Shown: positions 51,001-54,000, counted from the first letter of the whole stretch. The stretch: DNA of 62,628 nucleotides, filler included, from Candidatus Woesearchaeota archaeon (GCA_018399355.1; 3 parts of 3 records of this genome joined end to end with filler, not necessarily neighbours in it), one strand, 5' to 3'. Numbers: made by a program.

Positions 51001-54000
51001 TCCTGTGTTCATATAAGCCCCATTATCATAACAGATATAACAAAAGTTATCTCCTCTTTCAGCAGCTCCCGATAATGCCTGAAATCCTATGTCAAATGTT
51101 CCGCCGTCTCCTCCAAAAGCCAAAACATTTACATCTTTTCTTTTTCCCAATGATTTTAAAGCCCTGTCCACTCCTGAAGCTATTGCTGCTGCATTCTCAA
51201 AAGCGCCGTGTATCCATGGAATTTTCCATGCTGTTTCAGGATAAGGTGTGCTGAATACTTCCAAACAGCCGGTTGCGTTTACAACAATTGTGTTTTTTCC
51301 AGCTGCCTTTAAAGCAAGCCTTGCCATTAAAGCAGCACCACAACCAGCGCATGCCCTATGACCTGATGCAAAATGCTCTTCTGTTGTTATTCCGGCAATC
51401 TTATCATCCATTTTTTTCTACCTTTTTTTCAAGTGATTCTTTTCTTAATTTTTTGCTTTCTCCATTCCAGTAATCATGCCCAGAGCCCTGAAAGTCAACC
51501 TTAACCCTGTTTTTCTTTCTACAATTTGGGCATTTAATTAACTTGTAATGAAACTCAGTTTCAAACTCTGAATCCCATGCCTTCCCATTAAACTCTGTTC
51601 CGCAATATGTGCATGTTTTTTTTGAATGTATCTCTTTTACTATATGATGAACTGCTGTAATCTATATCACCTTAACTTAGCCACTCTGTCTGATTTGTTT
51701 TTCCTGTTCTTTCAAATGCCTTTTTTATATGCTCTTTGGTCACATCTCTTCCGCCAAGACCAGCAACAAAACCATTTATTATTGGCTTGTTTTCTTGATT
51801 GTAAAATGCTGACTTAAATTCCGTAAATAATGCCCCTTCATTTCCTAAGGATATATTACGGTCAATTACTGCTATGTTTTTGATGTTTTTGCAGCAGTTT
51901 GTTATCTCTTCTTTTGGAAATGGCCTGAAACATTTTATCTTGATTAGTCCTACTTTTTTCCCTTCTTTTCTCATTTCATCAACAACAACCCTTGCAGTTC
52001 CGCATATTGTTCCCATTGCCACAACAGCATATTCAGCGTCCTCAATTTTATAAGTTTCTAATACTCCATCTCCGTATCCGCGATTAAATGATTTTTTGAA
52101 TTCTGTGTTTGTTTTCTTTATAATTTCTTTTGCCCTTATTATTGCTTCATGTGTTTCTTGTCTGAACTCCATATAAGTGTCCGGAAACCCTATAGGTCCC
52201 ATTGTAACCGGCTTTTTAGGGTCTAGCTTAAATAGAGGATTGTATTTTGGAAGAAATTTATTAACATCTTTTTCATTTGGGATATCAACAGGCTCAAATA
52301 CATGGCTTAATGTAAATCCGTCAAGGCATACCATTACCGGAAGAAGAACTTCATGATTTTCCGCAATCTTGTATGCCTGTATTATTGTATCAAGGGCCTC
52401 CTGCGCAGATTCAATGTAAAGCTGTATCCACCCTGTATCTCTTTCTGATATGGAATCCTGGTGGTCGTTCCATATGTTTATAGGAGCGCTTAAAGCACGG
52501 TTAGCAACGGCCATAACAACCGGAAGCCTCATGCCTGCAACAATAAATAGAATCTCATGCATTAAAGCAAGGCCTTGTGATGCTGTTGCTGTGAATGTTC
52601 TTACTCCAGTTGCCTCAGATCCAATAGCTGCTGAAATAGCGCTGTGCTCTGACTCTACATGAATCATTTCTGCATTAAGCTCGCCGTTGTTGATAAACTC
52701 TGCAAGGCGCTCGACAATGTGCGTATCCACTGGTTAAGTATTTACTTAAACCAACTGTGGTGTTATAGGGTACATTGGTATTACCCTTGGTTCACATAGT
52801 TTAGCGCCCAAAGCAACGGCAGTGCTTGCCTCAATTACTTTCCTTACCATAAGATTAAGGCAATATAAGAAATATTTAAATATATTCTTTTTTACCATTT
52901 TAAATGTGGGTGTTAAACAGATAAATGGAAAAGGTTGGGTTTAAAGGATTAATTAAGTACAATGTTTATATTAAATTAGATAAGGAAGCAGTAGTCTTAA
53001 TCCTTAACATAATAAAAAAATCGGGCCTTTTGTTGGATGAAGAAACAAAAGAAAATCTATATAGACTCTCAAAAAATAAAAAAATCTCATTAAAGTTTAT
53101 GAAAAAATTGTCTGTTCTATTAGATATTCCATATTCTTATTTTTATAAACATATCTTGCTGATAACTAGTGTAAAAAATACAAATATAGGAATAAGGGAT
53201 CCAAAACTTCCGTTTAATCTTGGTAATGTTTCTGGAGCAAGATTTATTGGTGCAATCATGGGGGATGGAGAAATAAACAGTCAAATTCAAGTAAGGTATA
53301 ACAACCAAAATAAGGATTTAATAAACATAATAATTCATTGTGCTAAAGATTTGTTTGGTGATGTTGATTATAAGATATACTTAAGGAAAGATAAAACATA
53401 CCAATTGCACTTCCCAAAAATCGTTGGGTTGATTATGATTGAATTTGGTTTAAAACACGGCTATAAATCAGAAAATAGCTATAAAATTCCTGATTTTATT
53501 TTCAAAAAAAATGAGAAAATAAAATCTGCATTAATAAGGCAATTTTTTAATGATGAGGGAAATGTAAGAATCAAAGACAGAAGATTGCAGGTTAAACAAA
53601 CATCAAAGGTTAAGGTTTCAAAAGTTGTTTGCAAAGAAAAATCAAATGAAATTGCACATAACTTTTTAATTGGTATAAAAAAATTGCTTAAGTCTTTGGG
53701 AATTGATTCAAATATAAGCCTTGGCGCTTATAGGTATAAAAAAGCTGATTGGGAGCTTTCTGTTTATGGAAAAGAAAATCTTGTTTTATATAAAGAGAAG
53801 ATTGGTTTTGATTTATATGAAAAAACAAAAAAGCTGGATGATGCAATTAAAAGCTATAAATTTCCTTCTGCCCCAAGAAATAAAAAGCTTGATTTTGCAA
53901 TAAATAAATTTAAAGAAGTTGAAAAAAAATATGGATATGTAACAAAATATCTTCTTGCTAAAGAATCAAAAAGATCTTTAAAAACAGCTGTTTACTATCT

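Follow-up and report, generated by a model that had tools for sequence, protein, structure and literature searches.

The window analysed here is a stretch of 62,628 nucleotides (filler included) from Candidatus Woesearchaeota archaeon (GCA_018399355.1; genome G000). It consists of three joined contigs, and the locus of porA, the gene for pyruvate:ferredoxin oxidoreductase alpha, is located on contig C6. The features of this locus, which comprises the por genes and a free-standing gene for a LAGLIDADG endonuclease, are listed in Table 1. The endonuclease gene is inserted between porD and porA and is divergent from porA. On the minus strand between porA and porB (51413-51661), there is an open frame with a zinc-ribbon-like CxxC...CxxC pattern; it has no ATG, GTG, or TTG start and begins at ATT after GGTGA.

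Table 1. Features of the porA locus. Positions count along the window; those in brackets refer to the contig.
Feature	Position	Strand	Description
porB	50503..51411	-	intact; NF008819 above cut-off
porA exon 2	51672..52724	-	350 codons and stop, starts THIVE; NF040682 positions 33-382, E 5e-163
putative porA intron, HBh' type (relaxed bulge-helix-bulge)	52725..52754 (C6:10214-10185)	-	30 nt; inner hairpin, GTGG, AT; two in-frame TAA
porA exon 1	52755..52850	-	32 codons, ends YPITPQ; NF040682 positions 1-32, E 4e-8
palindromic TATA-like element ATATTTAAATAT	52872..52883	.	between divergent starts, 22-33 nt before porA
free-standing LAGLIDADG endonuclease gene	52925-54094	+	389 aa; motifs IMGDG (D114) and FFNDEG (E211)
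porD	54095..54370	-	NF040684 above cut-off; end one base from end of endonuclease gene
porC	54367..54975	-	ORF limits; NF006321 above cut-off, family match from residue 21

Read from its start at position 52850 on the minus strand, porA codes for ...YPITPQ, which is followed by LV*VNT*PVD and then by THIVER...; translation of the unspliced gene stops after 34 codons. An earlier note on this DNA had attributed the interruption to a 30-nt bulge-helix-bulge (BHB) intron with in-frame stops, and we obtained the same sequence and coordinates. The layout of the splice sites is CCAC AG|TTGGTTTAAGTAAATACTTAACCA GTGG AT|A, where exon 1 contributes through its last 6 nt one side of the central helix, the 5' strand CCAC, along with two bases of the bulge. 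The four CCAC/GTGG pairs have probabilities of 0.82-0.97 at four context lengths. When all stop-free excisions of 24-39 nt at a distance of at most 8 nt from the site were tried, YPITPQ-THIVE resulted only from the 30-nt excision at the BHB cut sites, which leaves a protein of 382 aa, as had been proposed. The two exons fill the NCBIfam PorA_Arch model (NF040682) without gap or overlap (1-32, 33-382), and the splicing product would include the peptide across YPITPQTHIVER. This is indeed the sole porA of the genome, with one copy found in an assembly that is 97.5% complete.

The patterns used to search for introns at this site prescribe the flanking codons alone and do not presuppose the helix; the collection scans demanded Thr-His-Ile after the intron and miss other contexts. 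In the order, 37 of 401 genomes match the flank pattern, 11 of them with an intron at the porA site, rather than the six counted previously. A phylum-wide sample has the intron in 6 of 401 genomes, every one in the same order. Two GTDB-wide pattern scans returned 59 and 56 stretches. When every locus was scored by tblastn, 32 distinct loci proved to have the intron and 101 to lack it; together with 18 metagenome loci, 50 intron loci were scored, which are not independent and some of which may represent the same species in GTDB and metagenomes. The introns are 27-36 nt long in the 32 GTDB loci and 20-33 nt in the 18 metagenome loci. Carriers are labelled Woesearchaeota or Nanoarchaeota, Aenigmarchaeota, one Nanohaloarchaea bin, and unclassified archaea; several carriers labelled "Methanosarcinales" group within Woesearchaeota on the PorA tree. 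Intron-less alleles are present in four of the 13 family genomes, where three had been given. None of 84 pattern hits in viruses is an intron in porA context. In genome G008, identical porA genes are found on C6 and C54, probably an assembly duplicate. The intron-less row L136 (G193), possibly also L129 (G220), and the weak endonuclease relative L269 (G143; see below) stem from genomes marked as unpublished, and no conclusion rests on any of them.

In all 32 distinct intron loci, the two ends of the insert lie at the spacing of BHB cut sites. Thirty-one of these have a perfect central helix, with CCAC/GTGG in 27, CCGC/GCGG in three, and CCTC/GAGG in one, so that CCAC/GTGG is not kept by every intron as had been claimed; the remaining case (L069) has a U-U mismatch. 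The four CCGC/GCGG and CCTC/GAGG loci represent compensatory two-sided changes at the one free helix position, and two further CCGC/GCGG introns were found among the 18 metagenome loci. CCAC is present in just 13 of the 101 intron-less alleles. At the 5' splice site, the exact 3-nt bulge is part of the minimum-energy fold of 28 of 32 loci, that of G000 among them, while a 2-nt bulge or an internal loop is predicted for L013 and L078. For a test of the inner hairpin, 28 of the 32 introns were aligned, with four near-copies left out. The inner helix is 88% paired in this set, and all eight inner pairs carry two-sided changes. Paired cells amount to 91.9%, compared to 65.3% after shuffling (0/500), a figure that relatedness can affect in favour of the real set, and to 34-42% in slid registers, which retain relatedness. 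The inner sequences had been called unrelated; this does not apply to all of them, since those of family members are nearly the same (29-30 of 30 nt). Exact cut geometry, profile continuity, and covariation thus all speak for the proposed reading of the insert as a tRNA-type (relaxed BHB) mRNA intron, which we regard as probable.

Each of the 32 introns has an in-frame stop in the frame of exon 1, at codons 1 to 10, and 17 also shift the frame, which bears out the statement that every intron carries a stop or a frameshift. Stops in the other two frames occur in 16 and 10 of the 32 introns, and about 0.52 per intron are expected from shuffles. The 18 metagenome introns likewise all have an in-frame stop. 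The stops in the 32 introns suggest selection for terminating unspliced porA messages, in a set of loci that are not independent. Once the intron is removed in silico, the frame is open for 330-354 codons in 31 of 32 loci; L143 has a later break in exon 2.

Stops in every insert would also fit translational recoding, in which case there would be no splicing and the ribosome would either re-initiate at the in-frame GTG of GTGG, leading to a split PorA, or hop over the hairpin. In 28 of 32 loci, GTG GAN and exon 2 share one frame, and a hop from CCA to CCA in G000 leads to an open frame of 383 aa. However, re-initiation is disfavoured because six loci (four from GTDB and two from metagenomes) have GCGG or GAGG, by which the GTG is lost and the pairing is kept. 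A conserved matched landing codon, as expected for hopping, is not present, and the pairing of the exon-1 wobble base with the insert would play no role in either case. In addition, exon 1 cannot be spared, because it holds the YPITP motif, which binds the substrate carboxylate and is required for activity according to the available text of PMC5020499. We thus consider recoding highly improbable.

That the gene is a pseudogene or the interruption an assembly artefact is scarcely credible. The data are indeed from MAGs only, the genome is reduced, and for 8 of 41 order relatives the same query gave no porA match. Against this stand the occupation of the same site in 32 distinct GTDB and 18 metagenome loci with a covarying structure, the spliced frame that is open in 31 of the 32 GTDB loci, and the partner genes porB, porC, and porD, which are intact and each score past their family cut-off.

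On the second bulge, the outer exon-exon helix has 0-1 stacked bp in all 32 loci and does not correspond to the canonical hBHBh' motif. Because there is no stacked outer helix, we assign the porA motif to the relaxed HBh' form (as described in the accessible part of PMC5829648), in line with the earlier description of the outer helix as relaxed. A displaced conserved outer helix was considered and rejected; the best candidate, 3 bp in 18 of 32 loci, is explained by conserved Ile codons. Both enzymes that had been named for the reaction are encoded, RtcB by a complete gene and EndA by a gene that is cut by a contig end. The EndA of relatives has about 180 aa and is a single alpha-type copy in each of the five genomes searched. 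Aligned to the enzyme from M. jannaschii (1a79), the alpha-type enzyme of one family relative shows neither a CSL, ASL, or L3 insertion nor the N. equitans insert; the partial EndA of G000 has the same length across the site of that N. equitans insert.

As far as the available text of PMC5829648 and PMC3241643 extends, alpha4 and alpha2 EndAs cut the canonical BHB only, and relaxed motifs require a specific loop and are tied to loop-bearing or hetero-oligomeric EndA. Neither a CSL, ASL, or L3 loop nor an (alpha-beta)2 or epsilon2 type was found here, and the combination of a loop-less EndA with a relaxed motif is the main point against splicing of porA. The missing outer helix and the alpha-type EndA without CSL, ASL, or L3 insertion might mean that the intron is excised by EndA together with a helper, be it another nuclease, a chaperone of the outer helix, or the LAGLIDADG protein as maturase. 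This appears very unlikely to us, as the cut geometry is of the EndA type in 32 of 32 loci and as, among the tRNA introns of G000 itself, some at position 37/38 have imperfect central helices and others occupy non-standard positions. We consider it highly probable that EndA and RtcB remove the hairpin from the porA mRNA.

Among the introns at 37/38, the central helix has 2/4 pairs in tRNA-Ile and 3/4 in tRNA-Trp and tRNA-Tyr. Beyond the anticodon loop, G000 has six introns at 59/60 and D-loop inserts in two tRNA genes; its tRNAs thus already require splicing at such sites, which softens the objection drawn from the loop-less EndA. The 59/60 introns are 89-130 nt long, have a perfect TTCA/TGAA helix, and possess an outer helix; therefore, they are no proof of HBh' cleavage. 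These T-loop introns are found at C3:4481(-), C7:8045(-), C17:144(+), C33:4459(+), C39:5927(-), and C45:12876(-), and introns of this type also at C71:2230(+) and C48:58(-), where both run off the contigs. They are composed of a shared, modular set of REP-like hairpins. The same element also trails some tRNA genes and may thus be a small mobile repeat that resides in tRNA introns. The D-loop inserts, of about 28-34 nt, are in tRNA-Lys(CTT) at C46:3817(+) and in tRNA-Arg(TCG) at C46:1637(-), the latter with two hairpins and no clear BHB. By eye, words resembling C and D boxes are seen in the 37/38 introns of the tRNA-Trp on C5 (C5:17535-17650) and the tRNA-Leu(CAA) on C23, as in intron-encoded guide RNAs.

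The genome was also scanned for hairpins joining two coding frames (introns of 16-80 nt, at least two G-C pairs in the helix, four inner pairs). From 6267 candidates, 30 passed the coding filter and two of these the fold filter; porA alone was convincing as an mRNA intron, so that its hairpin is not a product of chance. Sixteen of the 30 candidates were viewed and rejected, being by eye ordinary neighbouring genes, most with their own Met. RNase HII of this genome is uninterrupted, and a search for carB with TIGR01369 found none in it.

The protein encoded next to porA matches PF14528 (LAGLIDADG_3) with 31.2 bits (cut-off 22.5), and its best PDB match is an intein endonuclease (1dq3). Its Atlas neighbours are LAGLIDADG_3 clusters, in which 20-30% of the members have HTH domains. 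Residues D114 and E211 are invariant in 11 of 11 aligned endonucleases; going by the LAGLIDADG motifs, these would be the catalytic positions. A search for the endonuclease family in viruses gave no confirmed match. Distant relatives from other Woesearchaeales (L269, L270, L271, L273) adjoin DNA ligase-like, leuS-like, and other ORFs, as judged by eye. Elsewhere in G000 (C23:23745-24284), a 1260-aa open frame has two LAGLIDADG_3 matches and is probably an intein.

An endonuclease gene was found upstream of 12 of 30 intron loci and of none of 98 intron-less loci, a set that includes non-DPANN genes. Only loci with at least 500 nt upstream were counted, by which two intron and three intron-less loci were dropped. 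At an identity of at least 58%, the ratio is 9/20 versus 0/42. In eight phylogenetically independent pairs, the same direction was obtained 6.9 times on average and the opposite direction never (median p 0.016). A profile search of the 401 order genomes identified eight with endonuclease matches, the five strong ones all being intron carriers and the three weak ones adjoining other genes. In the reverse direction, 20 metagenome loci were found by the endonuclease alone; 18 of them extend into porA exon 1, every one with the intron, and the other two lack the flank. A GTDB-wide scan with a single query sequence found two loci only and is of little weight. The remaining 18 of the 30 intron loci are orphan introns without an endonuclease gene upstream and, because of these, the endonuclease is not a required cis-encoded maturase, which also counts against the LAGLIDADG protein as a splicing helper.

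The linked gene likely explains why the introns are scattered. On a quick IQ-TREE of 123 PorA proteins (31 of them intron-bearing; rows that were short or distant are not included), the intron requires 18 changes, at least 10 of them forced by starred branches, compared to 27.7 for shuffled labels; these are changes in either direction, as this tree cannot separate gain from loss. Within the family, exon 1 tracks the intron rather than exon 2, which points to co-conversion. Synonymous codons that differ between genome G002, which has the intron, and the intron-bearing G000 of another genus number 5 of 25 in exon 1 and 54 of 115 in exon 2 (nt 31-450). Between G002 and its intron-less congener G007, the values are 16 of 27 for exon 1 and 28 of 124 for exon 2. 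In G006, exon 1 is G007-like (4/27) except beside the intron, and the family's intron is present, so that the converted tract is short. Pairs that are further apart show less of this signal or none. G002 and G009 have a 59-nt spacer between porD and porA, where these genes overlap in intron-less congeners; the spacer is possibly a deletion scar.

The sequence TTTAAATAT is present in 10 of 12 loci with the endonuclease gene, compared to none of six displayed loci without it. The palindromic TATA-like element, which most cassette loci have 22-33 nt ahead of porA, is likely a two-way promoter carried along with the endonuclease gene, and it would replace the operon promoter severed by the insertion. 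The same divergent arrangement around a shared palindrome is, at the same time, what might be seen if the intron were real and spliced and the LAGLIDADG protein did not target the insertion site, being instead a domesticated regulator of porA or an enzyme that cuts nearby with the intron hitchhiking. The HTH domains among its Atlas neighbours, the distant relatives beside uninterrupted-looking DNA ligase and leuS ORFs (by eye), and the absence of the gene from most introns point in the same direction. However, both acids at the catalytic positions are invariant, and the gene was never found beside an intron-less porA (0/98, 0/18). Furthermore, exon 1 of G006 is of resident type except beside the intron, as expected if the DNA was broken near the insertion site. 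We therefore judge a regulator or an off-site nuclease to be unlikely.

We consider it likely that the insert in porA is a tRNA-type micro-intron spliced by the host and that, with the LAGLIDADG gene, it forms a two-part mobile cassette that spreads by collaborative homing. The earlier note was thus supported in its interpretation of the intron and incomplete in that it omitted the adjoining LAGLIDADG gene. In the porA mRNA, CCAC of exon 1 would pair with GTGG of the intron atop the intron hairpin. EndA would cut each bulge behind its second base, and RtcB would join the exons. The endonuclease would cleave intron-less porA near the codons for YPITPQ|TH, whereas a carrier would be spared as the intron splits the target. 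Repair of the break would then transfer the intron to the new allele together with exon 1 and, in many cases, the endonuclease gene, as co-conversion indicates. The endonuclease gene, being intergenic, might easily be lost, while an intron at a catalytic motif could be lost only precisely; this would leave orphan introns.

A pre-mRNA intron in cbf5 of Crenarchaeota is reportedly the subject of work by Watanabe (2002) and Yoshinari (2006). It is also treated by Yokobori (2009; PMC2738675), on whose available text the following comparison is based. Like the porA intron, the cbf5 intron is short (16-44 nt, compared to 20-36 nt in porA), often has a relaxed BHB, is located at a catalytic motif, has a patchy distribution with lineage-specific loss, and is removed by EndA, which for porA is a prediction. 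In contrast to cbf5, the host gene codes for a central metabolic enzyme, the lineage is DPANN, and EndA is of a single alpha type without known specificity loop rather than (alpha-beta)2. The porA intron is linked to an adjoining endonuclease gene, whereas none is mentioned for cbf5 in the accessible part of PMC2738675. Splicing has been shown for cbf5 and is predicted for porA.

The association of intron and nuclease resembles that of F-CphI with the group I intron in psbA of cyanophage S-PM2 (PMC6083498 and PMC2988022, as far as available). In both cases, a free-standing endonuclease gene adjoins a conserved gene, and an intron that lacks an endonuclease would protect the target site. The porA pair differs in being encoded on an archaeal chromosome rather than by a phage, in having a LAGLIDADG rather than an Endo VII-type enzyme, and in the nature of its intron, which is a single hairpin of 20-36 nt predicted to be spliced by proteins and not a self-splicing ribozyme. 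For the porA pair, cleavage and protection are predictions. With the archaeal rRNA BHB introns that encode LAGLIDADG proteins (available parts of PMC2738675 and PMC6125680), the porA pair shares the splicing motif, the nuclease family, and spread by homing as proposed here; yet the nuclease is encoded some 170 nt from the intron, on the other strand, and it is an mRNA rather than an rRNA that is interrupted.

A BHB intron in the 5' UTR of HVO_1309 from Haloferax volcanii (PMC7714728) is similar in that an mRNA is processed by the splicing endonuclease, as predicted for porA. Unlike the porA intron, it is outside the coding sequence and breaks no reading frame. That 2020 paper, in its accessible text, refers to cbf5 as the only earlier case of an mRNA intron, to which it adds the one in the 5' UTR, and further coding introns have been predicted and are unconfirmed according to the available part of PMC2738675. 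The description of porA as a second kind of archaeal mRNA intron after cbf5 thus needs care. By title or opening of the abstract, we found no report of a porA intron or of an archaeal pair of intron and free-standing endonuclease in the literature searched, which most subscription papers lie beyond.

In the literature covered, as far as the texts were accessible, cbf5 is the sole archaeal coding sequence with a confirmed intron, the origin of which is called unclear. A second host gene, 50 intron loci, variants with natural compensatory changes, and an enzyme that may mobilise the intron together make the gain of introns by archaeal mRNAs directly testable. The porA case would challenge the rule that relaxed BHB motifs require a specificity loop in EndA. 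It also has a practical side: gene callers truncate intron-bearing porA to a 352-aa ORF without YPITP, and DPANN metabolic reconstructions can therefore mis-score PFOR. On balance, and with some reserve, we favour the view that DPANN archaea splice the mRNA of a central metabolic gene with a loop-less alpha4 EndA and that the intron of 20-36 nt is the armour of a free-standing LAGLIDADG endonuclease, the pair having invaded porA across Woesearchaeota, Aenigmarchaeota, and further DPANN bins, and every intron being under selection to contain a stop in frame. If true, this would represent a working route by which archaeal protein genes gain protein-spliced introns.
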